A DNA stretch of 64,000 nt from Chloroflexota bacterium (GTDB lineage Bacteria > Chloroflexota > UBA11872 > VXOZ01), in contig CAXXVD010000001.1 of the NCBI GenBank assembly GCA_963662335.2, forward strand, positions 352,001 to 416,000. The letters are read 5' to 3'. The notes beneath the pieces are model-generated. The model was not told where the DNA came from, did not search any database, and saw only the letters and a program-made list of their open reading frames with translations. Shown here in pieces: positions 51,598 through 64,000 of this stretch. Within the stretch, counting starts at the first letter, position 1. Every line of letters starts with the position of its first letter. A program made the position numbers and the translations under genes.

Positions 51598-52572
51598 TCA
51601 CGCCGTAACTTCCGCCCCCGCCGTCTGCGGCCGCTCCACCCGGTCGTACAGGTCTTCAAGGTAGTGGGTTGCGGCCACGGCGGCGGTGGTCGCGTCGCCC
51701 ACGGCGGTGGTAATCTGCTTCGTCAACTGCGTGCGCACGTCGCCGGCGATGAAGAGGCCCGGCACGGCGGTCTCCATGTGCAAGCCGCCGATCAGATAGC
51801 CGTTCTCATCGCGCGTTACGTCTTCCTCAATGAAGTCGGTGTTCGGGTCGAACCCAATGAAGATGAACACGCCGTCGGTCTCGTGCACCCACTCCTCGCC
51901 GGTCTTGACGTTGCGCAGCCTCATGCCGGTAACCGCGCCGTCAGCGCCGATGATCTCGTCGGCCACCGTATCCCAGATAATTTCGGTCTTGTCATTCGCC
52001 ATGAAGCGCTCTTGGATGATCTGTTGTGCGCGCAGCTTGTCGCGCCGGTGCACCAGATAGAGCTTGCTGGCAAAGCGGGTGAGGAAGAGGCCTTCCTCCA
52101 CCGCCGAGTCGCCGCCGCCAACCACCGTGATCACCCGGTCGCGGAAGAACGCCCCGTCGCACACGGCGCAGTACGAGACACCGCGCCCCGCGTACTCGAA
52201 CTCGCCCGGTATGTTCAGCGCCGTGGGCGACCCGCCGGACGAGACGATCACCGCCCCGGCGCGGTATTCCTCGCCGTCCGTCGTGCGCACGACCTTCTGC
52301 CAGCCGTCCGAAAAGACCGCCGCCACCTCGGCGGTGAGGATTTGTGCGCCAAACACCTGGGCGTGGGAGACCATCTTCTGAATCAGATCGGCGGCGTCGA
52401 TGGACTCGAACCCCGGGTAGTCCTCGATGAGTGACGTATTGATAAGCTGCCCGCCGGGCGCCATCTTCTCCAAGATCACCGTATCGAGCCGCGCCCGCGC
52501 CGTGTAGAGCCCGGCGCACAATCCGGCCGGCCCGGCGCCAATGACGATAACGTCGTGATACCGTACTGCCAT
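51598..52572 (-). CDS. trxB: Thioredoxin-disulfide reductase
   Basis: GAGPAG, GVSYCAVCDG, GGGDSA.EE, HRRD..RA, AGD. Confidence 0.96.
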   Translation of the reverse strand: MAVRYHDVIVIGAGPAGLCAGLYTARARLDTVILEKMAPGGQLINTSLIEDYPGFESIDAADLIQKMVSHAQVFGAQILTAEVAAVFSDGWQKVVRTTDGEEYRAGAVIVSSGGSPTALNIPGEFEYAGRGVSYCAVCDGAFFRDRVITVVGGGDSAVEEGLFLTRFASKLYLVHRRDKLRAQQIIQERFMANDKTEIIWDTVADEIIGADGAVTGMRLRNVKTGEEWVHETDGVFIFIGFDPNTDFIEEDVTRDENGYLIGGLHMETAVPGLFIAGDVRTQLTKQITTAVGDATTAAVAATHYLEDLYDRVERPQTAGAEVTA

Positions 52573-52940
52573 CTGTCTGCTCATTCCTTTCACTCGCGCC
52601 GCCATCCCGGAAGCGCGTACACGTCGGCGAGGCTGCGCGTTCTTGCGCTCGTTACGGTAGTTCTCAATCGGTCATAGCGGTCGCCGCGCAGCGGCGTCCT
52701 CCTCTTTCAGGGTACCAAACCCGCAGACCTACCGCTATAGATAGCGCTGCGGACGGAGAGACGTCGTTTTTCAAGCCGCCTCAAACCATCTTCCATAGCA
52801 TCCTACCTTCCCGCCCACGAGACGGCTGTGGGGAAAGGTTTGGCAACTCTCTCGGCGGCCAAGGGGCTTGACTCACGCCAAGGTGAGAGGAGACCCCTTG
52901 CTCATCGGATTTCCCCTCGCCTGAGAGAGGGTTAGAAGCC

Positions 52941-53299
52941 CAATATAGTCGCATTAACGTAGCGCGGGGGCTTGTCCCCCGCCGGAGTAAAGCACGGGGA
53001 CTCGTCCCCCCGCCGGAGTAACGCGCGGGGGCTTGTCCCCCGCCAGAGCAAAAGAAAAGCACACGCAAAGGATTGACCCTACAGCCTCGCAGGTTGCAAA
53101 CCTGCGCTACCGGAGATGCGAGGCGTGGTTCTCATCGCCATTGAGTTTAATGCGACAGCATTGGGGCTTGTCCCCCGCCGGAGCTATTGAAACTGGCTCG
53201 CAAAGGATTGACCTAACAACTTCATAGGTTTCACAACCTGCGCTACTGGAGACTTGAGACGCGGGTTTTGCAGCCGCTCTGTTTAACGCGACAGCATTG
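52941..53299. mobile_element. Nested/tandem MITE composite
   Basis: One left TIR (CAATATAGTCGCATTAA), three REPs, a body nearly identical to 9617-9779 ending at 53163, then GGGCTTGTCCCCCGCC plus a second body and right TIR ending at 53299. Confidence 0.82.
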
Positions 53300-53362
53300 G
53301 GGTTCGAGCCTGCCCGCGCATGCTACGGGCGTGAGGAGAAGTTCGGCCAAAATCGCCTTGCG

Positions 53363-54196
53363 CTACCGGCCGGACTGCGCCGTCGGTTCCCTTGCAGCGT
53401 TCGCCGCGTGCAGGTATTGGCGGCAGAAGGCGGCGGCCTGGTGGATGCGGTCGCGCACCTTCTCGTCGGAGCGGCCCGCGTGCAGCGCGTACGGGTGCAA
53501 TTCCACCACGATCGTGCCCCCGAAGCCGTCGCGGCCCAGTTCGCCCAGGAAGTCCGCCAGCGGCAGCGTGCCCTCACCGGGGAAGAGGTGTTCCCGGCCG
53601 TTGTACTCGTCCGAAAGGTGGATGTGGCGCACCGTGCCGCGCAGTTCCCGCCACGCCTGCAGGATGTCGATCCGCGAGACCCCAAAGTGCGTCGTATCCA
53701 TCGTGAGCGCGGGGAACGGCCGCATGGACTCCACTTGCCAGAAGTCATGCTGGTCCCGCTGCAAGATGCCCAGGCGCTTTACCAGGCGGCGCGGCAGGTT
53801 TTCCACCGTCAGCAGCACGGGCGTCTCCGCTTGCAGCGCTGCCAGGTTCTGCATTAGCCACGGCGCGATCTCCGGCCCGCCAAAGGCCACCGGGTGGATG
53901 ACCACCGTGCGCGCGCCCACCGCTTCCGCCAGGCCGATCGTCGCCTTCAGCGTGCCGGGGTAGTCCGCCCCCATCTCCGATATGGTCCGAAACGGCGCGT
54001 GCAAGCTGTGCACCGGAATGCCCCACTGGGCCACCAGCGCGTTGATGTAGTCCGCCTGGCGCGTATCCCAGCGGTTGTCGACGATGAGTTCCACGCCGTC
54101 AAACGCGGAGCCCCCCATCAACTCGAACGTCCGCGCCAGGCCATAGGTGTAGAGCGAGCCGGTGGATAGGGTCAGCGCGGGCTCTTGATTCGCCAT
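53363..54196 (-). CDS. Sugar phosphate isomerase/epimerase
   Basis: SLHAPF, VVIHP, VENLP, DTTH, HIHLSD, H..PGEG, VVEL. Confidence 0.85.
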   Translation of the reverse strand: MANQEPALTLSTGSLYTYGLARTFELMGGSAFDGVELIVDNRWDTRQADYINALVAQWGIPVHSLHAPFRTISEMGADYPGTLKATIGLAEAVGARTVVIHPVAFGGPEIAPWLMQNLAALQAETPVLLTVENLPRRLVKRLGILQRDQHDFWQVESMRPFPALTMDTTHFGVSRIDILQAWRELRGTVRHIHLSDEYNGREHLFPGEGTLPLADFLGELGRDGFGGTIVVELHPYALHAGRSDEKVRDRIHQAAAFCRQYLHAANAAREPTAQSGR

Positions 54197-54448: not shown

Positions 54449-57400
54449 ATGATGCGTGCTCGTTGGTTCGGACAGGCATTGAAGCGGCGGGGCGGAGTTT
54501 CCCCCGGCGGCCGGGCGGCGCTGGTAGCGGCGCTGCTCATTGGCGCGCTCTGCGTTGCGCTGGTTCACGCCAACGCGGCGGCAGCGGCCACGGTCACGGC
54601 TCCCCTCTCCCAATCTGAGGCTACGCCGACACCGACGCCACAACCTGCGCCGGACCCCACGCCAGCGCCGCCTCCCGCGCCAACGCCCACACCTACACTT
54701 ACACCCACGCCTTCTCCTACCCCGGAGCCTACGCCTACACCGACGCCGGAACCTACGCCGGAACCTACGCCGACGCCCACTCCCACTCCCACGCCAACAC
54801 CGTCCGGGACTCAGGGAGGCCCTCCCGCGCTGACCATCGCTTCCTCCCACGCCACGGCGGCCAAGGGCGAGGAGGTCGAGTTCACCATCACAGCCGGCAA
54901 CGCGCCCGCTTCCGATCTCACGGTCAATCTGCAGGTTAAGGCCAAAGGCTCGTCGGTGGATGAGACCGGGTCGCTGCAAGTCGTCCTCCGGCAGGGCGAG
55001 ACGCAGACCTGGCTCACCTTGGTCACGGAGGGCGGCTCCGTAGACCTAGCGGGCGCCACCGTCACCCTCACCCTTCAAGCCGGCACGGGCTACACACTTG
55101 GCAGTCCCGCCGCGGCCAGCGTCAGCGTGGAAGACCGGCCCCTGCCCACGCCCACCCCCACGCCGGAAGTAAAGGGGGAGACGCCTGGCGGAGCGGCCCC
55201 GGCGCCCTCGGGCCTCTCGGCGTCGGGGACCAGCCGCTCCAGCATCCGCGTCAGTTGGAGCAGCGAAATATTCGTCGTCGCTTACAAGGTAGATCGCTAT
55301 TACGACGAAATCCCGCCTGTGCCCTTCTGGCTGAACCTTATCAGCGGCACCTCGAGCACGAGTTATACGGATGGCGGACGCAGGTGCGGCACAAGCTATA
55401 GCTACCGCGTCGCCGGCAAGGGAGACGGCAGTTTCTACGACACGTACTACGGCTCCTATTCGTACACGTCGGGCAGCACCTACTCGTGCCCGGTGCCAAC
55501 GCCGACGCCTACGCCCACTCCCACACCAACACCTACGCCCACTCCCACACCAACTCCGACACCCACGCCTACGCCAACGAAGACGCCCACACCTACGCCA
55601 ACGAAGACGCCCACACCTACGCCAACGAAGACACCTACACCTACGCCAACGAAGACGCCCACACCTACACCAACGAAGACGCCCACACCTACGCCAAGAC
55701 CAATTCCCACACCCGTACCCAAGGCCCCCGCCCCTGCCAACGTAGTCGCGACTCCCACCGGTCTCACCAGTATCACGTTCGCTTGGAGTGCGCGGACGGG
55801 CGTTTCGCACTACATGTTGGAGCGCTACTTCACCGGTGTCAGGAGCGAGAAAGAGAAGGAGGGTTCCGGCCAGAGCGAAGAAGGTTGGTCGAGCGTAGCC
55901 ACTGAGATAGCGGGCACAAGCTACGCTTATACCAGCAACACCTTGCTCTGCGCTAGCAGCGAGAAGTTCCGCGTCAGCGGCCGCGGAAACGGCGCCACGT
56001 ATAGCACAGCGTACGGCGCCACCACCGAGGTTAGCGGCACTATTCCGTGCGCAAAAGCAGCCCCCAAGCCCACCGGCTTCACCCTTACCGCCACCGGTGA
56101 GCAGAGCATCACCGCCAGTTGGGACTCCCATACCGATCTGCACGGTTTCAAGCTCGAACGGCTCTTCCTTGGCACCGAACCCGGCGGCTCCGGGCAAACC
56201 GAACAGAGCGTCTGGAGTGAAGTAAAAGGGGCTGAAGACCTATCTGCCACCAGTTTCGAAGTCACCGACCAGGTCGCGTGCGGCAGTTCCTATTCGTTCC
56301 GGCTCAGCGCCCGGGGGGACGGCTGGCCGTATCTCACCGCGTTCAGCACGCCGACCGCGGAGCAGAGCGGCAGCACCTCGCCCTGTACCAGAACCGCGCC
56401 TGCGCCCACCGGCCTCAGCGCCAGCGCCGCCGGTAAGACCGGCATCACCGCCAGTTGGAGCACGCAGGATGACGTCGCCGCCTACAAGCTGGAGCACGCC
56501 CTCGCCGGCACACCCACGCCCGCCTGGACCGCCATCGAGAACATCGCCCCGACCCCGGGCGCGAACGCCACCACCGGCTATACCGTGAGCACCCTCGAGT
56601 GCGGCACGGAATACAGCCTCCGCGTCAGCGGCAAGGGCGACGGCTCGCCCTACACCACTACCTACGGCACTCCATCGGCGGCAGTCACCGGACGCCCTGC
56701 GCCCTGCGACGTGCCCGCGCCGACCGGCCTTAGCGCCAGCGCCTCCGGCCAGACCGGCATTGCCGTCACCTGGTCTGGCGTCACCGCCGGCGTCACTTAC
56801 ACGCTGGAGCGTTCCGACGATGGCGGAAAAACCTGGCCGAAGGGATCGCCACACGTCATCAGCGGTATCATCGGTACCAGCCAGACCGTTAGCGGCCTGA
56901 GCGAGTGCACCGAGTACGACTTCCGGGTGGGAGGCGTAGGCGACGGCTTGCGCTATTCCGCCACCCCCGGCCCCACGGCGCAGACGACGGGACGCACCGC
57001 GCCTTGCGCCGTGCCCGCGCCCACCGGCCTCAGCGCCACCGTCGTGAGCGAGACCGCAATCACCGTCAGTTGGACCGCCATCGGTACCGGCGTGAAGTAC
57101 ACGCTGCAATACGACAAGGGTAAGGAAACCCAAACCCACTCAGACATCACCGGGACCAGCTACGCGGTAACCGGTCTAACGTGCGGCACCGCATACACCT
57201 TCAAAGTCAACGGCGTGGGGAGCGGCTGGCCTTACGTCGCCACCCCCGGCCCCACGGGCCAAGCGCAGGCCACCACCACCGGCTGCGACGTGCCCACGCC
57301 CAGCCTCTCATTCCCCCAGGTTACGCGGACGAGCATTACCGGGCAGTGGAGCACTTACACCGACATCACCTACCGGTTGGAGTACATAGTCAAAGCTGCC

Positions 57401-59437
57401 GACAGCGGCGCGGGTGGCGCTGCCCCCAACTGGTCCCCGATCGGGAATAGAATCCCAGGGACAGGCAGCGCGGTTTCCAGCGTTGCGGAGAACCTGAAGT
57501 GCGGCACCGCCCATCAGCTTCGAGTCGAGGCAATTGGCGACGGAACGCACTACAAGAACGAAACCGTCACTACTGACCCGCTCACCCAGAGCACCAGCCT
57601 CTGTCTGGCGTCGGCCCCTACTAACGTCCAGGCCATACCCACCGCCCAGACCAGCATCACCGTCAGTTGGGACACCCAATCCGGCGTCTCCACCTACAAG
57701 CTGGAGCGCTCCGACGACAGTGGCGCCAACTGGCCGAACGCCAATGCGGTGCAAGTTGCCCCCACCCCGACGGGCGCCAGTCACACCTATACGAACCTAA
57801 CTTGCGGCACGGACTACCGCTTCCGCGTCAGCGCCATCGGCGACGGCATCAACCTCGATAATTCCACTTACGGCAGCACGTCGTCAGTGATAACAGCCAG
57901 CACCGACAACTACTGCACGCCGCAGGACCTCACCATAATCCCAATGCCGCAACGAAAGGCGGAGTTGCGTTGGGGCGCCGTGAATGGCGCGACGTACACA
58001 GTGCAGATACGCAAGCCGAGCGGGAATTGGCCAACGCCTATACCCGGCGGTACCGTTCCTAACGAGCATGACAGAGGAACGAGCACCTCCCATGAGATCA
58101 AGCTGGATGAAGTTTTCAACGCTGGCACAGTAGCGGCGCCGGCCCTTGAAGGCCTCGCTCATGCCACGGCCTACCACCTTCGCGTCCAAGCCACCGTCCC
58201 CGGCCATGGCACCTTTAGCAGCATGCCAATTGTCATTATTGACACCCCGATCTTGCGGGCCAATGGCAACAGCCCCGGCTTGGGCGCAAATGACGCTCAG
58301 GTAGCCCTTAAGTGGACGCCCATCCAAGACATCCTTGGCGCAAGCTACACCGGTGGCGCGTATACCTTCAACTATCGCCAGCTTGAAAACGACCACACCC
58401 AGATCGGCTGGCAGCCAGACACCTTTGGCCCAACAAGCACTACCAGCGCCACAATCAACGGCACAACTCATACGATCACCGGGCTAGCGCGGGAAAAGAT
58501 CCAAGCCATACAGTTAGTCTATGCCGTCACTCCGACCCCCGGTGGCGCAAACCGGGTATTCGCCGCCAGAGATGCCTACGTCTGGCCCTCCGATCGCGCC
58601 GGAGGCGGCGGTGAACGAGTTGCGACGTTTCCTTTGAATTATCCGCTAAGTTTGCTCTCCAACAAAACGTATGTGTACCGCATCTGCGCAGGCACGTTCT
58701 CCTCAGATGCAAACAAGCAAGCAGCTTGGCGGACTTTCGTCATCCATGCTCTCAACCAGTGGCACCTGGCCACTGACGGTCTGGTCACAATGACACATTC
58801 ACCTGGCGGTTGTGCCGACTTCTCCGATCACATTACGCTCGTTTACGATGGAGTTAAAGACCGCCTTATGAAAGAGTTAGAGCCTGACGAGGATGCCAAA
58901 CTGCGGGCTCAAGTGAGAGCGCACGTTGGGAAAATCGGCAGTTGGTTGGATATCGCCTCTCAGGATCGCGCGTTGAATGAAATCAGCGTGATCGACCTCG
59001 GCGCGGATGAATACGACGCATTGAAAGCTGTGAAGATTTCAGCGGAACTCGCAAGGGATCTTGGATTCGCCACATGCATATTCGACGCTCCCGCCTGCGC
59101 ACCCCGAAACAAGGTGCCGCTAACGCTACTTACTACCGACATCTTGCTCAAGCGGGAAGGTGGCTCAGCGTACCAAGAAGATCCTCCACCTTTGCCGACG
59201 GTAGAGTTCAATACATGCGTCGCAGGGGAAAACAAGGCATATGAACACTTGGTGCATGAAGCGGGCCATGCCTTGGGAATCCGAGAGGGCAATGATGGCG
59301 CTGACCAACTGGTCCATCACCCTACAATTCCGGACTCAGTGATGAGTTACGAAAGGCTGCTCCCGGTGGAAGACCCGGACTGTTCCCCTCACCCCCTAGA
59401 CATCATGGCTATATTTGCGCTGTATCAGACTCGCTAG
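54449..59437 (+). CDS. Giant secreted protein: PT linkers, Calx-beta-like domain, about 8-10 FN3 repeats, C-terminal zinc metallopeptidase
   Basis: Signal peptide; repeats AP.GL.A....T.I..SW...LxCGTxYxFRV...GDG; HEAGHALG and SVMSY Met-turn. Confidence 0.88.
55494..55720 (+). repeat. Coding tandem repeats (PT dipeptide and 24-bp TPTPTPTK units)
   Basis: ACGAAGACRCCYACACCTACRCCA repeated five times after a (PT)n tract; a second PT tract lies at about 54620-54800. Confidence 0.9.
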
Positions 59438-59453
59438 TAAGGAGACTCAGAAC

Positions 59454-60878
59454 ATGTCGTTCAACGCACGCTTGATTCAGGTGGCAATTCGAGGCATGGG
59501 TCTCATGGCGCTAATGCTGGGCCTTGCCAGTTGTGGGGAGCAAGATTCATCAGCAACCGCAGCAGAATTGCAGTACCCATGTGGCCCGTTCTTCACAGAA
59601 CACTATACCGGGTACCAAAGGCACTTCTTGGAGTGGACGCCGGACGGTAGCAAAATAATGTTCGACTATATTCCAAGAGGCTATAGAGACCTTAGCTCCT
59701 TGTTCCCTGGAAGGATGATTTGGCTAGCAGCCAGCGATGGTAGCGAGGCGCGAATGCTTGTTGACGCAAATCCTGGCGGCGTCGGACTGTTCAACTTCCA
59801 TGCCGACGTGTCACCTGATGGCACACGTATCGTCTATGCCACCTGTGAGTTCCCGACGGAAAGCATACACATGGAATCATTCGACTCGGAACGAAGACAA
59901 CTCCACTACGAGATTGCCGTAATCAACCTTGACGGCTCGGGGCAACAGCGGCTCACGGTGAATGAGCATCTTGACCACTTCCCAGTCTGGTCGCCCGACG
60001 GAAACACCATCGTCTTCATTGCTAACCCCCATGAGAGAAGCTTATACAATACAGCAACTGCGGAACTCTATGCTATGGCGGCGGATGGTTCAGACGTGCG
60101 CCTTGTAGTCTCCACACTAAATAAGGTGAGCACGGAAACCGAGGGATACTATTACTGGCGAAATAACGCTTTCAACACACAGCGCGGCGTAAGTGAGATT
60201 GGTAATCCTGACGAGCCGTGGCTGTGGGCGGTGACTCTCGCCGCGCCTGCGTGGTCCCCGGATGGGGGGCGTTTGGCGTTTCTGGTGGACGAGGGGGAAT
60301 CACCGCCGCTTCGCCACCTGCTGTACATGGCGCGGGCTGATGGTTCGGAACTTATGAAAGTCGCCGAAACTGCAGGTGTTCAGATTGCACTTCCGGGTAG
60401 CAATTACAATTCGCCGATTACGCCCACTTGGGAGCCGAGTGGGGAGCGACTCGCCTTCGTGGGTGTCAATGAGGCAGGTGGCCCCGGCGGAGTCTTTACC
60501 ATTCGTCACGACGGTACCGATCGCAAACTGGTCTTGGAACCGCAGGGGCCAGACTGGCAGGTGTGGCACCTGTCATGGTCGCCGGACGGATCTGAGATTC
60601 TCGTAGTGTCTACTCATGGCACATTCGCTATCGAGATGGATGGCGGTGGCTTTCGCACTCTGAATTCTGTGAAAGTGCCGCGCAACTCACTTGGTGTTGT
60701 TGCGGCGTGGTCGCCAGACAGTACACGCATTGCGTTCTATATTGCACGTGAAATCCACAACGAACCGCCGCAACTGTTTACAGTAGCCCGCGACGGTACC
60801 GACCGCCGCGACCTAATTCGCCTGGACGCCGACGGCAACCTCGTGCCAGCCAACCCGCCGCAGGAGAAAGCCGAATGA
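59454..60878 (+). CDS. TolB-like (PD40) beta-propeller lipoprotein
   Basis: AAGGAG RBS 2 nt after the upstream stop; LASC lipobox; repeated W(S/T)PDG motifs. Confidence 0.85.
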   Translation: MSFNARLIQVAIRGMGLMALMLGLASCGEQDSSATAAELQYPCGPFFTEHYTGYQRHFLEWTPDGSKIMFDYIPRGYRDLSSLFPGRMIWLAASDGSEARMLVDANPGGVGLFNFHADVSPDGTRIVYATCEFPTESIHMESFDSERRQLHYEIAVINLDGSGQQRLTVNEHLDHFPVWSPDGNTIVFIANPHERSLYNTATAELYAMAADGSDVRLVVSTLNKVSTETEGYYYWRNNAFNTQRGVSEIGNPDEPWLWAVTLAAPAWSPDGGRLAFLVDEGESPPLRHLLYMARADGSELMKVAETAGVQIALPGSNYNSPITPTWEPSGERLAFVGVNEAGGPGGVFTIRHDGTDRKLVLEPQGPDWQVWHLSWSPDGSEILVVSTHGTFAIEMDGGGFRTLNSVKVPRNSLGVVAAWSPDSTRIAFYIAREIHNEPPQLFTVARDGTDRRDLIRLDADGNLVPANPPQEKAE

Positions 60879-60962
60879 GCCTTCCACGTGGGTACGTGCT
60901 AACGCCGTTGCCTCAGACTGGGGTTGCCGCTTGCAGCCTGCGCCGACGCCATGCACGGGAGA

Positions 60963-63140
60963 ATGAGGTTGATGAAAACTAGGTCAAGCGGAAGGAACCT
61001 GTTGGCGGCCGGCGCGCTGGCGCTGCTGCTGGGCGGTCTTGGCGTCAGCGGCTGCGCGGACGCGGACACTGCGCCCCCCGCCGCCGCGCCGGCCCAAACC
61101 CGGTCTGCTGCCGCTACGGACGACGCGTCCCGGCAACCCGCCGCCGCGCCCACGGTGACCGCTCCCTGCGCGGCCGATGGCGAGTGCGCCCTGCGCGACG
61201 TGAGCGCTCTCCACCTCTTCTCCTTTGAAGACGGCGGCGCGCGTTCCCCGTCGGTTGAAATCCCCAGCGTGGAGGACGTGCTGGAAAAAGGCCTGCGCTT
61301 GGCGGAAGCCTCACCTGTTCACATTGCCGTCCGCGGCCGGGCCGCCGCCAACTCCGTGCGCTGCGAGTGGCGCGGCATCGCCCGCACCCTACAACAACGG
61401 GCAAACGCCGTGCGCTTCTGGCTCGGCCTGAGCACGAGCGACACGCTCCCCGCCGCGCCCCACCTCGAAACTCTCTTCAAAGTAACCTTCGATACCGTGA
61501 AGCCCGCCTATCGGGAGACCGCTACCTCCAACTTCCTCGCCATCGCCCGCGGCGGCCTCTCGGAAGAGTACCTCTTCCTCACCTGCTACGCCGACTTCAC
61601 CATCCGGGAATACGTGCTCGGCGCAGGGCCTTCCACCATCACCGTCGCCTACGACCGCATGGGCGAGGTCCACTCCTACGAGTTGTACCGCAAGGAACAC
61701 GCGGCGGGCACGTTCGGCACGGCGGCGCTCCGATCCCGTGACGCCCACGCCACGGCCATGTTCACCCTGGTCGCGCAAGCCGAGCGGTCGCTGCGAAGCA
61801 GTATCGGCGGCAAGCAGATCGTGGTCTTCCTGGCCCCCATGGGCGCGCACAACGCAATCGCCGTCGAGGCCTGGCAGGCGATCGACCAGTGGGACGTGCA
61901 GTTGGTGAACGGCACGCTGAACGCGGTGCGCTTCGGGGCCTATCCCGGCGACCCGGAGCACTCCCAATCCCTGCACAACCTGCGCAACCGCGTCACCAGC
62001 GCGGCGAGTAAGGACGCCTTTGCCGGCAAGCGCATCAGCAACGTCAGCGGACTGCGCAAGTACTATACCGACATCGGCGCGTACGGCGACATCACCCCCG
62101 ACGACGGCAAGACCGATACGTTCACCCCCAGCCAGCCGCCGCCCGTCCTGCCCTGCGAGAACGGCGCCGCCGTCCCCAATCCCAGCGCCAATCCCGGCCT
62201 GGTCTTCGACTGCCGCACGCTGCTGGGGCTGAAATCTACCCTGGCCGGCTCCGCTACCCTGAACTGGAGCGGCAGCACGGCTATCACCGCGTGGGACGGC
62301 GTGCTGGTCGGCGGCTCGCCGCAGCGGGTCAACCGCCTCTCACTGAACGGCAAGCAACTGAACGGCCGCATCCCCCCTGAACTCGCCAACCTGACCAAAC
62401 TCCACTTCCTCTACCTGCAAAACAACCGCCTGCGCGGTTCAATCCCGCCGGAACTGGGCGATATGGCCGAACTCCAACACCTCTACCTGAACCAAAACTG
62501 GCTCACCGGCGCGATCCCCGCCGAACTCGGCAACCTGGCCAATCTCACGCGCCTCTTCCTGGACCGCAATCAACTCTCCGGCGCGATCCCCGCCGAACTC
62601 GGCAGCATGGCCAAACTCCATCAACTCTACCTCAATCACAACCGCCTGACCGGCGCCATTCCCAAAGAACTCGGCAACCTCTCGAAACTCTGGTACCTCT
62701 ACCTGGAACACAACGAACTGACCGGCAGCATTCCCAAGGAACTCGGCAAACTGTCCATCCTCACGCGGATGGACATCTACGACAACCAATTGAGCGGCGC
62801 CATCCCCAAAGAACTCGGCAGCTTGACCTTGGTCACCCGCCTGGACCTGAGCAAGAATAAACTCACCGGCGCCATCCCCCCTGAACTGGGCAATATGGCC
62901 AAACTGGAGTTCCTCTACCTGCACTGCAACGTGCTGACCAGCACAATCCCCGCCGCGCTGGGCAACATCACGACCCTGCGGGAACTCTACCTGCTGGGCA
63001 ACACCATCACCGGCGACGTGCCCGCGAGCCTGTCCGGCGTTGACGTGCGCACGGGCGCGTCGTCGGTCTGCACCTCGGTCTCCCCAACACCGACGCCGTT
63101 CCCCACCCCAACCCCAACCGCAACGCCCGCCTCCGGCTGA
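60963..63140 (+). CDS. Lipoprotein with ten plant-type 24-aa leucine-rich repeats
   Basis: VSGC lipobox; LRR N-cap DC..LL..K..L.G...LNW...W.GV; LxxLxLxxNxLxGxIPxELG repeats. Confidence 0.9.
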   Translation: MRLMKTRSSGRNLLAAGALALLLGGLGVSGCADADTAPPAAAPAQTRSAAATDDASRQPAAAPTVTAPCAADGECALRDVSALHLFSFEDGGARSPSVEIPSVEDVLEKGLRLAEASPVHIAVRGRAAANSVRCEWRGIARTLQQRANAVRFWLGLSTSDTLPAAPHLETLFKVTFDTVKPAYRETATSNFLAIARGGLSEEYLFLTCYADFTIREYVLGAGPSTITVAYDRMGEVHSYELYRKEHAAGTFGTAALRSRDAHATAMFTLVAQAERSLRSSIGGKQIVVFLAPMGAHNAIAVEAWQAIDQWDVQLVNGTLNAVRFGAYPGDPEHSQSLHNLRNRVTSAASKDAFAGKRISNVSGLRKYYTDIGAYGDITPDDGKTDTFTPSQPPPVLPCENGAAVPNPSANPGLVFDCRTLLGLKSTLAGSATLNWSGSTAITAWDGVLVGGSPQRVNRLSLNGKQLNGRIPPELANLTKLHFLYLQNNRLRGSIPPELGDMAELQHLYLNQNWLTGAIPAELGNLANLTRLFLDRNQLSGAIPAELGSMAKLHQLYLNHNRLTGAIPKELGNLSKLWYLYLEHNELTGSIPKELGKLSILTRMDIYDNQLSGAIPKELGSLTLVTRLDLSKNKLTGAIPPELGNMAKLEFLYLHCNVLTSTIPAALGNITTLRELYLLGNTITGDVPASLSGVDVRTGASSVCTSVSPTPTPFPTPTPTATPASG

Positions 63141-63168
63141 ACCGCGGCCTAATCAACTGCTCGTGCGC

Positions 63169-64000
63169 TTGGAGACCAACGTCATGGTCACTCCCACCGC
63201 CCAGACCAGCATCACCGTCAGTTGGGATACGAACAACAAGGTCACTGCTTACAAGCTGGAGCGCGCCATTGCCGTCACCCCCACGGCCACGCCCGCGTGG
63301 ACGCAAGTTGCCGTCGTCACCCCAGCCCCGAGCTCCACGACCACAAGCTACCCGGATCCTAGCCGGAGTTGCGGCACGGCCTACCTCTACCGCGTCAGCG
63401 CCATCGGCGACGGCACAGACTACAGTAAGTTCGAATACGGCGACCCGTCACAACCGGAAACGGCCAGCACTGACTTCTATTGCGTTCCGCAGAGCCTCAC
63501 TGTCATCCCGCTGCCACAACGAAAAGCGCAGATCGCCTGGAATCCAGTCGCCGGCGCTACCGGCTACGCCATCCAGGTCATGAAGCGGGGCGGGGTCTGG
63601 TCGCCTCCCACTCCAGTAGCCGATACTTCCAAAGACATCGAGTTGGACAGCATTCTCGCTGGTGAAGGCCTCGCTCACGCCGACGCCTTTCACTTCCGCG
63701 TGCAGGCGGTGTTCCCCACTCCAACTCCGATTAGCGCCTTCAGCAAGACGATCACCGTTATAGACAGTCCCATTGTCAGGGTCAACGGCCACAGCCCCAC
63801 TTCGACGCCGATAGCGAAGGCCGTTGTCACGTGGAAGCCGCCTGTCGCGGCTACGGCATACTACGTGCGCTCGCGGAAACTCAGTGTTGGGCAAGACCAT
63901 ACGGCCAAGGAGTGGCAGCTGGACGGAGACTCATTCTCAATAGGCGAATTTGCGCCTGGCAGCCCCACGCCCGTGCCCTCTCCGGTCCCCACTCCCGTTC
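63169..64000 (+). CDS. Partial ORF (runs off the window): signal-less paralog of the C-terminal third of the giant FN3 protein
   Basis: [65 protein letters not shown] aligns with 57620-58420. Confidence 0.8.
   Translation, partial: METNVMVTPTAQTSITVSWDTNNKVTAYKLERAIAVTPTATPAWTQVAVVTPAPSSTTTSYPDPSRSCGTAYLYRVSAIGDGTDYSKFEYGDPSQPETASTDFYCVPQSLTVIPLPQRKAQIAWNPVAGATGYAIQVMKRGGVWSPPTPVADTSKDIELDSILAGEGLAHADAFHFRVQAVFPTPTPISAFSKTITVIDSPIVRVNGHSPTSTPIAKAVVTWKPPVAATAYYVRSRKLSVGQDHTAKEWQLDGDSFSIGEFAPGSPTPVPSPVPTPV

Follow-up and report, generated by a model that had tools for sequence, protein, structure and literature searches.

The locus at the end of the window (the whole 64,000-nt stretch of Chloroflexota DNA that was analysed) and its continuation beyond are interpreted here, at an even chance in our estimate, as a hypervariable three-gene surface module with one exported "expression" copy and two intact signal-less spare cassettes. 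Among cassette-type conflict loci it is a real variant, apparently not described before, with a putative function; within the terms searched, the literature gave no description of a metzincin and propeller-lipoprotein cassette system. An earlier, sequence-only reading of the window had proposed a stalk gene followed by one orphan cassette. The orphan exists, but the locus holds three units (A, B and C), not two.

Features of the locus, with positions counted along the window and continued past its last nucleotide
Feature	Position	Strand	Description
Gene A (ORF A)	54449-59437	+	1662 aa; translation, Cys pairs, Pfam, AF2 tip model
Junction segment of A	57620-58185	+	last canonical FN3 and first mid domain (mid1); counterparts in signal-less copies
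Tail block of tip	59378-59434	+	codes for 19 residues; ca. 57 nt, the tip's last residues
PD40_A	59454-60878	+	beta-propeller lipoprotein; ATG 16 nt past the stop of A
LRR_1	60924-63140	+	lipoprotein; Pfam LRR; ca. 10 LRRs and PT linker
Element X	62932-63181	+	LRR gene 3′-end and spacer, ending just before the start of B; direct repeat
Gene B	63184-65067 (= L001:3184-5067)	+	FN3, mid and complete metzincin tip, 627 aa, no signal peptide
Element X, further copies	73080-73328, 77214-77463		outside the window

Stalk and metzincin tip of gene A

Gene A consists of a predicted signal peptide, PT linkers, an FN3 stalk, two FN3-like "mid" domains and a C-terminal metzincin tip (about 58529-59434). 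The stalk is built of about nine Cys-paired FN3 repeats (Pfam fn3, E 1e-43), with eight Cys pairs spaced by ca. 34 residues from 313/347 through 1119/1156. Stalks are less conserved across genomes than tips, and the stalk of A had no relative above 32% identity. Translation and Pfam confirmed the sequence-only reading of an exported FN3 protein that ends in an HExxHxxG/Met-turn peptidase and is followed after 16 nt by a propeller lipoprotein.

The GC content was 0.52-0.57 at 58400-60800, against 0.62-0.72 in the stalk. GC3 was 0.75-0.90 in the FN3 stalk (about 54800-58050; 0.55-0.71 in PT-linker stretches), 0.54-0.66 in the tip, 0.60 in PD40_A and 0.85 in LRR_1, with a genome median of 0.83 (964 long ORFs), of which the tip and PD40 values belong to the lowest 2-8%. 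In codon composition, the tip and PD40 deviate from the genome at large, and the stalk and LRR genes conform to it. These measurements agree with the greater A/T-richness of tip and lipoprotein that had been noted by eye, and the GC3 plot is not flat along the locus. The flanking genes (FAD oxidoreductase, TIM-barrel protein, DUF6807, HSDR_N) are of the housekeeping kind, with no integrase among them. A scan for promoters and terminators was uninformative: promoter-like sites numbered 8 (shuffled sequence 5.9±2.9) and terminator-like sites 9 (shuffled sequence 15±3.5).

The tip of A reads HEAGHALG and then a VMSY turn. Among 34 aligned tips, the HExxHxxG residues H243, E244, H247 and G250 were invariant (34/34), and H264 together with six Cys, which probably form three disulfides, was invariant or at least 90% conserved. 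The third zinc ligand, His/Asp in HExxHxxGxxH/D, is not at the canonical position in A or B, which is occupied by E in A (seen in an 11-residue stretch) and by G in B. H264, a conserved His located 17 residues past the second zinc-binding His in A and farther in B, may act as a substitute ligand. At the Met-turn position, VMSY was found in A, AMNY in B, and VLNY in C and in some homologs, P0019 and P0021 among them.

The AF2 model of tip A (pLDDT 81.9) was aligned by VIA-align with serralysin 1akl (Z 11.3, rmsd 3.9, 185 aligned), MMP-9 (8k5v, Z 11.2), snapalysin (4hx3, 10.5) and astacin (9.8); the best 40 matches were all metzincins (Z 11.3-5.6), and the best Foldseek match was MMP-11 (E 2.7e-3). 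The predicted fold is thus a divergent, M10-like metzincin. In Pfam, no peptidase family was matched in A or B at E≤0.01 and PF00413 was not matched in the tip of A at E≤1; weak M10 (PF00413) matches were obtained for 25 of 34 tips (best E 4.3e-6), the gathering score being reached by none, and the tip profile had no significant match among PDB sequences (best E 0.55). The tip resembles matrixins (MEROPS M10/Pfam PF00413) in its HExxHxxG helix, Met-turn-like segment and C-terminal helix, and in the Z of 10.3-11.2 of the model to MMP catalytic domains over ca. 150 residues, but differs in its length of ca. 300 aa with large insertions, the lack of His/Asp at the canonical third-ligand position, and the three probable disulfides.

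All tips fit one profile and form one metzincin fold family, which comprises 784 clusters at 50% identity (E≤1e-3). Architecture figures refer to the 150 representatives listed, of the 784 clusters: the tip is nearly always C-terminal, since the residues beyond it had a median of 0 (maximum 647). Tip start was at residue 250-349 in 19/150, none of these (0/19) being signal-peptide-like, and listed representatives with a tip start at residue 600 or beyond were mostly signal-peptide-like. The signal-less "FN3+mid+tip" form appears, by these architectures, to recur across the tip family.

Partner lipoproteins and signal-less copies

PD40_A carries the lipobox LASC and Pfam PD40 repeats (E 3e-23), with the NCBIfam TolB-propeller model below cut-off. 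The tail block, ca. 57 nt long, precedes each of the 12 PD40 genes of this genome (12/12), orphan array included. It sits between tip and PD40, so that recombination there would uncouple the pair and not move the unit. Differences by codon position among seven tail-block remnants (95/66/223) were biased to the third position; translation of the remnants as small ORFs was rejected, with starts and frames inconsistent between copies.

Six PD40 genes form an array without a peptidase at C1:612839-621733, and the same orphan arrays were found in related genomes, the genes within one array being paralogs of 34-51% identity. Genome G008 has six PD40 genes, and its peptidase is only a 147-aa tip fragment, the best whole-genome tip match covering the C-terminal third only (profile positions 262-367). 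Even with a degraded tip or none, the PD40 genes are intact. Identities of tip and PD40 were correlated (Mantel r 0.77, 0/5000 permutations), which indicates shared descent and not specific co-evolution, because the mid-PD40 (0.67) and tip-mid (0.73) correlations were comparable.

The LRR gene, which the sequence-only reading had taken for an interruption, is instead the third component of the module, conserved and recurring in other loci. Its N-terminal domain of about 320 aa is conserved, with 49-70% identity in seven other sequences and 260 database proteins at E≤0.001. The domain had no match in NCBIfam or Pfam, the AF2 model built from eight sequences was unusable (pLDDT 40.6), and no usable Atlas match was obtained. 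Members of this gene family also bear LRR, cadherin and FN3 arrays. The full N-domain was present in 0/150 listed tip-bearing representatives, P0092 having a 56-residue fragment. The three copies of element X are 86-89% identical and equal in length (250, 249 and 250 nt, no net indel), and the regions upstream of the B2 and B3 units are 83% identical. Within the genus, the LRR part of X was found only in G011, and the X-FN3 junction in no other species.

Gene B has an ATG start with GGAG 9 nt upstream and begins at an FN3 homologous to the last canonical FN3 of A. It retains HEAGHALG and the Cys pattern, the tips of A and B being 39% (pairwise MAFFT) or 31.5% (tblastn) identical. A PD40-LRR lipoprotein, B1, starts at 65087, 19 nt past gene B. 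Extension past 64000 therefore bore out the expectation of an orphan with a divergent tip and a second PD40 lipoprotein, and the downstream ORF is complete, not a short decayed duplicate without tip or partner. Unit C, a third copy located 10 kb beyond B, has its own PD40 gene and a tip gene without signal peptide, of 651 codons once a 2-nt insertion behind window position 74836 is counted; every contig of the runs X1-X3 has this insertion. Pseudogene status of C was rejected, or is at least unproven, as the frameshift at ca. 74836-74872 vanishes with the insertion. The dN/dS ratio was 0.30-0.33 for B vs C and 0.29 for LRR_1 vs LRR_2, and these values point to coding constraint on both signal-less copies.

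The junction segment of A is 81% identical at the DNA level to 73322-73899 in copy C and 69% identical to 63175-63531 in copy B. Two blocks reported earlier as common to the stalk and the downstream ORF are both exact between A and B: 35 nt (57638-57672 = 63193-63227) and 26 nt (57823-57848 = 63390-63415). These exceed ordinary repeat paralogy, because the FN3 repeats within gene A are only 66-72% identical to each other in DNA, with the single exception of 66 nt at 82%. Species G006 had matches of 28-30 nt to the 35-nt block. At the protein level, B and C are 82-100% identical in FN3 and 42-54% in mid1, and A and C are 82-93% identical in mid1 and 27-45% in FN3. In P0012, which comes from another assembly and a close strain, the start is 90-100% like C and the tip 65-81% like A, and its contig also bears a 97% ortholog of LRR_1. 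Identity between L002a and L002b was 80% in mid, 46% in the tips and 43% in the PD40s. By these comparisons, A, B, C and P0012 are mosaics with breakpoints at domain borders, indicative of past exchange. Among the joints listed for the X1-X3 contigs, none credibly connects A to B or C, all having sides of 20-29 letters.

Recurrence and comparison with known systems

The order of tip gene, PD40 lipoprotein and LRR-type lipoprotein recurs in Chloroflexota/Dehalococcoidia MAGs. A PD40 gene lies directly downstream of the tip gene in A, B, C and 9/11 loci from other genomes, a candidate immunity position; the two exceptions are L003, with a non-PD40 lipoprotein, and L009, with a broken tip and the PD40 gene 1.4 kb off. 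An LRR N-domain gene was found downstream of the tip gene in 10/11 of the other loci, immediately behind the tip-PD40 pair in L005, L007, L008, L010 and L012. Within the genus, matches were obtained in 10/16 other genomes, with 0-18 per genome; the distribution is patchy and the copy number variable. Comparison of related genomes, which the sequence-only reading had suggested, revealed that tips are not invariant and differ between copies, species and close strains. A relative was also detected in a run labelled sponge metagenome, as pieces of at most 1.6 kb on contigs of at most 4.7 kb, with ca. 90-93% identity.

The logic of Rhs, CdiA and MafB loci on an FN3 scaffold, as earlier suggested, holds for the truncated copies, the mosaicism and the orphan PD40 arrays, but not for the tips, which belong to one metzincin family and not to unrelated folds. 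The work of Jackson et al. in 2009 is said to be associated with loci of this type that bear orphan C-terminal/immunity cassettes. Such cassettes of polymorphic toxin loci are described by Zhang et al. 2012 (PMC3482391), who state that domains of the beta-propeller type had not turned up among immunity proteins. Similarities to these loci are the full-length exported gene A followed by a small partner gene, the 5′-truncated B and C downstream, which begin at a common junction and have partner genes of their own, as well as the mosaic copies, the compositionally atypical variable end, and the patchy distribution among relatives. In contrast to the unrelated toxin folds there, the variable end here is one metzincin family, presented on an FN3/PT scaffold with plain Sec export and without RHS/FHA repeats, a known delivery machine or a releasing peptidase; the partner is a beta-propeller lipoprotein of ca. 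450 aa, and the unit includes a conserved third gene. No dedicated delivery route (T5SS, T6SS, T7SS or others) was found at the locus, where A has a Sec-type signal peptide only and the flanks are housekeeping.

T6SS orphan immunity gene arrays that arise by sequential effector displacement, as described by Kirchberger et al. 2017 (PMC5361080), are similar in their tandem intact partner genes without effector, in the effector 3′-end pieces beside some partner genes, and in occurring also in effector-less genomes. They differ in that no T6SS context was present in the window or the related loci examined, that the remnant here is a uniform ca. 57 nt before every partner gene, and that partner genes of one array are here paralogs, whereas those of the T6SS arrays are of unrelated families. 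With serralysin/AprA and Inh/AprI, and with snapalysin and sermetstatin (PDB 4hx3, 6ixx), the locus shares a metzincin-fold protease accompanied by a potential producer-protecting protein. In both of these pairs the protease and inhibitor genes adjoin in an operon. However, the inhibitors there are of the small beta-barrel or SSI type, unlike a propeller lipoprotein, and these pairs do not form polymorphic cassettes in multiple copies; the inhibitor role of PD40 is putative.

Proposed mechanism and rival explanations

In the proposed module, the first member would be a Sec-exported protein whose FN3/PT stalk presents the C-terminal M10-like metzincin away from the cell. The second, the PD40 lipoprotein with its start 16-19 nt downstream, diverges together with the tip. 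Its propeller may bind the tip, and its most likely role would be that of a cognate inhibitor by which the producing cell protects its own surface. The third, the N-domain and LRR lipoprotein, may be an anchor or receptor. B and C would be donors replacing the mid/tip/PD40 end of A, by recombination through the common FN3-mid1 segment, whether this deletes the DNA between direct repeats or proceeds by gene conversion. Protection against the proteases of neighbours would come from orphan PD40 genes, the selective driver being conflict between related cells. The fullest form of this proposal is possible, though doubtful: a Chloroflexota conflict system in which the FN3-stalked, Sec-exported metzincin would cut surface proteins of neighbours, the tethered beta-propeller would plug its cognate protease, silent FN3-mid-tip and propeller cassettes would recombine into the single expression gene via FN3-mid1, and propeller-only arrays would accumulate as protection.

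Rather unlikely, in our estimate, is a lineage-specific expansion of surface "adhesin/protease" modules by tandem duplication and incidental gene conversion, with B and C as leftovers without 5′-ends, PD40 as a working partner (substrate capture, anchoring or maturation) and not an inhibitor, and the FN3, LRR, PD40 and cadherin repeats serving host or particle attachment. Direct repeats of element X that bound the duplicated units, the likeness of B2 and B3 upstream, the single family of all tips, the correlation of tip, mid and PD40 identities, the adhesin-typical arrays in the third gene's family and the relative in the sponge-labelled run all suit such an expansion. Leftover status is nevertheless unlikely for B and C, because they keep full open frames, catalytic residues, the Cys pattern and a dN/dS of ca. 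0.3, unlike decaying leftovers. The recurrence of the signal-less form and the atypical composition of tip and PD40 next to typical stalk and LRR genes also argue against it, and the intact PD40 genes found with a degraded tip or none are hard to fit with a PD40 merely assisting its own protease.

In another rival reading, a surface protease that faces a host undergoes antigenic or phase variation as pilE/pilS does, with A as expression site, B and C as silent donors and host recognition as driver. This reading would agree with one signal-peptide copy beside two intact signal-less copies with common junction homology, with the hint of sponge association, and with repeat domains that resemble eukaryotic ones. 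It is improbable, as it leaves unexplained both the co-diverging PD40 lipoprotein of each cassette and the PD40-only arrays in genomes without an intact tip; moreover, donors are here only two, and known variation systems have far more donor cassettes. It is very improbable that B and C are artefacts of a long-read assembly whose indel errors broke single LRR-lipoprotein-FN3-peptidase fusion genes apart, giving two ORFs from each. The assembly does carry an indel error or variant in one place at least, behind 74836, and no stop interrupts the B frame over the 48 codons upstream, where it overlaps the homopolymer-rich PT linker of LRR_1. Yet the element X copies are equal in length, no indel at L027:7040-7184 is among those listed for the X1-X3 contigs, and a fused full LRR N-domain is missing from the listed tip-bearing representatives. 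A single indel cannot fuse LRR_2 and C, because in copy 2 the C frame is closed by a stop that lies past the one ending LRR_2.

Effector/immunity loci built on cassettes have been known mostly in Proteobacteria, Firmicutes and Bacteroidota, where dedicated secretion machines go with them. What the three-gene module adds is a cassette locus grammar in Chloroflexota/Dehalococcoidia, in which the stalk is simply exported, the variable end is a protease, and a propeller lipoprotein co-varies with it. Whatever its function, the tip represents a large metzincin family without a Pfam model, and the LRR N-domain a family of 260 proteins without a known fold. If the conflict system were true, it would include the first beta-propeller immunity family; if PD40 inhibits the protease, the two would constitute a new protease-inhibitor pair, extend the immunity proteins by a new fold, and represent a new route of kin discrimination in environmental or symbiotic bacteria that are abundant and for the most part uncultured.

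Organisation and integrity of the tandem array

The genome assembly (3.23 Mb in 5 contigs, 64.5% G+C), in which the window spans C1:352001–416000, holds the locus within a 23-kb array flanked by ordinary genes, and no integrase or transposase was seen in these flanks. The protein of gene A contains eight Cys pairs at a spacing of about 34 residues, and its C-terminal metzincin domain (the tip) carries HEAGHALG followed by a VMSY turn. As the sequence-only reading had it, the signal-less downstream ORF (gene B) restarts at an FN3 repeat homologous to the last canonical one of A. It ends in another peptidase tip, which is complete with HEAGHALG, the Cys pattern and the C-terminal tail as in A (39% identity to the tip of A by pairwise alignment, 31.5% by tblastn), and is followed 19 nt later by the beta-propeller (PD40) lipoprotein gene B1 with a short LRR tail. 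Behind B1 are located two more PD40 lipoprotein genes, B2 and B3, and the LRR lipoprotein gene LRR_2 with 77% identity to LRR_1. Gene C is followed by one more lipoprotein of the PD40-LRR type and then by 250 nt left over from the 3′ end of an LRR gene. With the parts seen past the window end, the locus is a tandem array of three units built from a tip gene, one or more PD40 genes and an LRR gene; signal peptide and stalk are confined to the first unit.

Features of the locus and related genes (window numbering unless a contig C1 or a genome extract L is named)
Feature	Position	Strand	Description
Flanking genes	51598-54196 and L001:17629-20000		FAD-dependent disulfide oxidoreductase, xylose-isomerase-like TIM barrel, DUF6807, HSDR_N-domain protein
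Gene A	54449-59437	+	1662 residues; signal-like N-terminus; long PT linkers; fn3 (Pfam, E 1e-43)
PD40_A lipoprotein	from 59454	+	16 nt past the stop of A; lipobox LASC; PD40 repeats (Pfam, E 3e-23)
LRR_1	60924-63140	+	LRR lipoprotein
LRR_1 N-domain	61143-62210		about 320 aa
Gene B	63184-65067	+	627 aa; no signal peptide; GGAG 9 nt upstream of start
Gene C	from 73310	+	third FN3-mid-tip ORF, downstream of LRR_2
Element X	62932-63181, 73080-73328, 77214-77463		LRR 3′ end/spacer; equal lengths in all three copies
Lone PD40 gene	C1:464405-465676	-	tail block without tip gene
Six tandem PD40 genes	C1:612839-621733 (L013:2839-11733)		after two ABC-transporter-like permease genes; no peptidase gene nearby

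Codons richer in A/T had been noticed by eye in the tip and the lipoprotein, and the GC3 values agree: 0.75–0.90 in the FN3 stalk of A (ca. 54800–58050; 0.55–0.71 in its PT-linker stretches) versus 0.54–0.66 in the tip and 0.60 in PD40_A, with a return to 0.85 in LRR_1. Compared with 964 long ORFs from across the genome, whose median is 0.83, the tip and PD40 values fall within the lowest 2–8%. Both DNA blocks reported as shared between the stalk of A and the downstream ORF proved exact.

Gene C is frameshifted in the assembly near position 74872. However, every aligned contig of the sequencing runs X1–X3 has a 2-nt insertion behind position 74836 (L027:18836, outside the 64-kb window), with which C lengthens from 520 to 651 codons and includes both HExxH and the conserved tail. 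This points to an assembly error or a variant, rather than decay, as the source of the break in C, so that the assembly contains one or more indel errors or minority variants at this locus. Separation of B from LRR_1 by an indel error was considered and rejected: the copies of element X are equal in length, and the frames at copy 2 cannot be fused by a single indel. Moreover, no indel at the LRR_1/B junction was listed among the aligned contigs, and not one of the 150 listed database representatives with a tip carried a full LRR N-domain. On these four grounds B and C are evidently genuine stand-alone ORFs without signal peptide. Judging from their substitutions, coding constraint acts on the signal-less copies (dN/dS of 0.30–0.33 between B and C, similar to 0.29 between LRR_1 and LRR_2).

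Tip peptidase, LRR N-domain and spread of the module

At usual thresholds neither Pfam nor NCBIfam yielded a family for the tip, and its sequence gave nothing significant against PDB. An AF2 model built from 34 sequences (pLDDT 81.9) found structural matches to metzincins only, with Pseudomonas alkaline protease on top (Z 11.3), then matrix metalloproteinases (11.2–10.3), snapalysin (10.5) and astacin (9.8), and ADAMs, fragilysin, archaemetzincin and ulilysin down to Z 5.6; the best Foldseek E-value was 2.7e-3. Weak matrixin (PF00413) matches were obtained for 25 of 34 tips scanned singly (best E 4.3e-6). Among the aligned tips HExxHxxG is invariant, and six cysteines and a downstream His are at least 90% conserved; His or Asp is absent from the canonical third-ligand position. 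The tip is read as a putatively active, disulfide-stabilised and divergent M10-like metzincin with large insertions. The mid region directly before the tip is FN3-like. The N-domain of the LRR genes (49–70% identity across genomes) heads 260 database proteins, where LRR, cadherin, FN3 or PD40 arrays follow; it is without Pfam or NCBIfam family, its AF2 model from 8 sequences (pLDDT 40.6) gave no usable fold, and it could represent either a novel fold or a domain for anchoring.

Searching 1.84 billion representatives with a profile built from tips A and B gave 784 clusters at E≤1e-3, including 215 at E≤1e-30. In the best 150 of the 784, protein length ranged from 180 to 2676 aa and the tip was nearly always C-terminal (residues behind it: median 0, maximum 647 in the 150 representatives listed). 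Under a crude hydrophobicity rule, proteins of these 150 with a tip start at residue 600 or beyond were mostly signal-peptide-like, and none of the 19 with the form of B and C (tip start at residue 250–349) was; some short signal-less forms could stem from frameshifts in the assemblies. Two hybrid ORFs among the database representatives, P0070 (715 aa; PD40 C-terminal part and tip) and P0092 (447 aa; LRR N-domain fragment and tip), may have arisen from arrays of this kind by read-through or recombination.

All related loci were in MAGs titled Chloroflexota or Dehalococcoidia. In other genomes, a PD40 gene directly follows the tip gene in 9 of 11 loci, the exceptions being L003, with a non-PD40 lipoprotein carrying an LRR N-domain, and L009, with a broken tip and PD40 at 1.4 kb distance. 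An LRR N-domain gene lies downstream of the tip gene in 10 of the 11 (not L011), straight after the tip-PD40 pair in L005, L007, L008, L010 and L012. Loci L002, L004 and L012 have one signal-bearing copy together with signal-less or truncated copies, each with a PD40 gene of its own. Matches were present in 10 of the 16 genomes from other species of the genus (0–18 per genome), and four of the six match-free genomes are one- or two-contig assemblies.

In L002 (9170–15138), from another Chloroflexota genome, a common leader of ca. 45 residues with a signal-like stretch opens three different genes: one tip gene of 585 aa, another of 178 aa with an internal deletion (leaders 77% identical over 44 aa between these two), and an LRR N-domain gene, which suggests a shared, repeated 5′ module.

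Mosaic copies and orphan propeller genes

Sliding identity between copies revealed a mosaic. B and C are 82–100% identical in FN3, 42–54% in the first mid part (mid1), and 58–86% in mid2 and the start of the tip, whereas A and C are 27–45% identical in FN3, 82–93% in mid1 (81% at DNA level over 582 nt) and 36–52% beyond it. The L002 copy pair is 80% identical in the mid region, and only 46% in the tip and 43% in PD40. Protein P0012 of another assembly, the sole close relative of the start of B outside this genome, is 90–100% identical to C in FN3 and A-like in the tip (65–81% in tip windows), and its 3.28-Mb contig also carries a 97% LRR_1 ortholog; no members within 90% of B or C were found outside the source genome. 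Together, P0012 and the ortholog indicate that cassette content differs between close strains, probably beside a near-identical LRR gene.

No credible A::B or A::C joint occurred among those listed for the aligned contigs, because all joint sides were shorter than 30 letters. In run X5, which belongs to a second study, one contig connects a B-like with an LRR_2-like segment and has ca. 4 kb less between them than the source genome, suggesting a different number of PD40 genes. Run X5 is labelled sponge metagenome, and its relative is ca. 90–93% identical (L027:646–1623, L027:7411–16098) in pieces of 0.3–1.6 kb on contigs of up to 4.7 kb; another of its contigs omits 976 nt within the FN3 stalk of A. 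Stalk length and PD40 copy number both seem variable. In another species, G006:C1:337917–337944 and 342340–342369 are 28–30-nt matches (100%, 97%) to the 35-nt exact block, ca. 1.3–1.6 kb upstream of tip-domain starts, with only 68–79% identity in nearby FN3 DNA.

The source genome has 12 PD40 genes of this type, each with a Cys directly behind a hydrophobic stretch, and all 12 are preceded by a block of ca. 57 nt coding for the last residues of the tip (…PDCSPHPxDIxAIYALYQ) and its stop. This tail block is present without a tip gene at B2, B3, the lone PD40 gene and the six-gene array, where the propellers share only 34–51% identity. The tail remnants are still recognisable, and their differences by codon position (95/66/223; 7 remnants, 21 pairs) are biased to third positions, which dates most of the divergence to a time when the block still coded for protein. 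It appears that each orphan PD40 gene derives from a separate tip-propeller pair. Small genes were ruled out as an account of the remnants by inconsistent frames and starts. The remnants all end at nearly one point; perhaps no DNA other than the tail block is similar enough from module to module for crossover, or alternatively the block may carry a signal that the PD40 gene needs. Five relatives (G003, G004, G005, G008, G011) have tail-only matches ca. 1.4–1.7 kb apart, the same array type. In genome G008, six PD40 ORFs are accompanied by a single tip fragment of 147 aa and by two fragments of the LRR N-domain, and the best match anywhere in that genome is confined to the C-terminal third of the tip (profile positions 262–367).

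Proposed exchange of cassettes and its rivals

The proposed likeness to Rhs, CdiA and MafB loci stood in part. The locus grammar matches their orphan cassettes, as described in PMC3482391, and the orphan immunity arrays of T6SS, as described in PMC5361080. In contrast, it departs from polymorphic toxin systems in two defining traits: the tips are not unrelated toxin folds attached to a conserved N-terminal region, and no dedicated route of delivery is evident. A simple toxin-immunity reading is countered by the single fold family of the tips and by their better conservation relative to the stalks; A has a Sec-type signal peptide, and no delivery device was evident for it among the flanking genes. 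According to PMC3482391, no beta-propeller domains had been found among immunity proteins. No account of a metzincin and propeller-lipoprotein cassette arrangement was found in the literature searched.

A system of exchangeable cassettes, to which the mosaic copies and orphan arrays point, is in our judgement about evenly poised between right and wrong. Plain paralog expansion, with PD40 as a working, non-inhibitory partner, is less probable though a serious rival. Tip and PD40 identities correlate (r 0.77), but so, in the same manner, do those of mid and PD40 (0.67) and of tip and mid (0.73), which indicates common descent only and counts against a simple toxin-immunity reading. The variable locus could also be taken as antigenic variation driven by a host, to which we assign a low probability. 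An assembly artefact, in which indel errors would have split B and C off from fusion genes, is very improbable; the error or variant in C stands on its side, the four grounds named above against it.

In the cassette reading, A would be exported and display an active metzincin at the stalk end, and the PD40 lipoprotein, made from the same message as the tip, would sit on the membrane and bind its cognate tip, most likely as an inhibitor shielding the producer. B and C would be reservoirs able to replace the distal part of A plus the propeller gene, with either a deletion between direct repeats or conversion via the 57620–58185 segment as the possible route, and the propeller-only arrays would guard the cell against the proteases of its neighbours.
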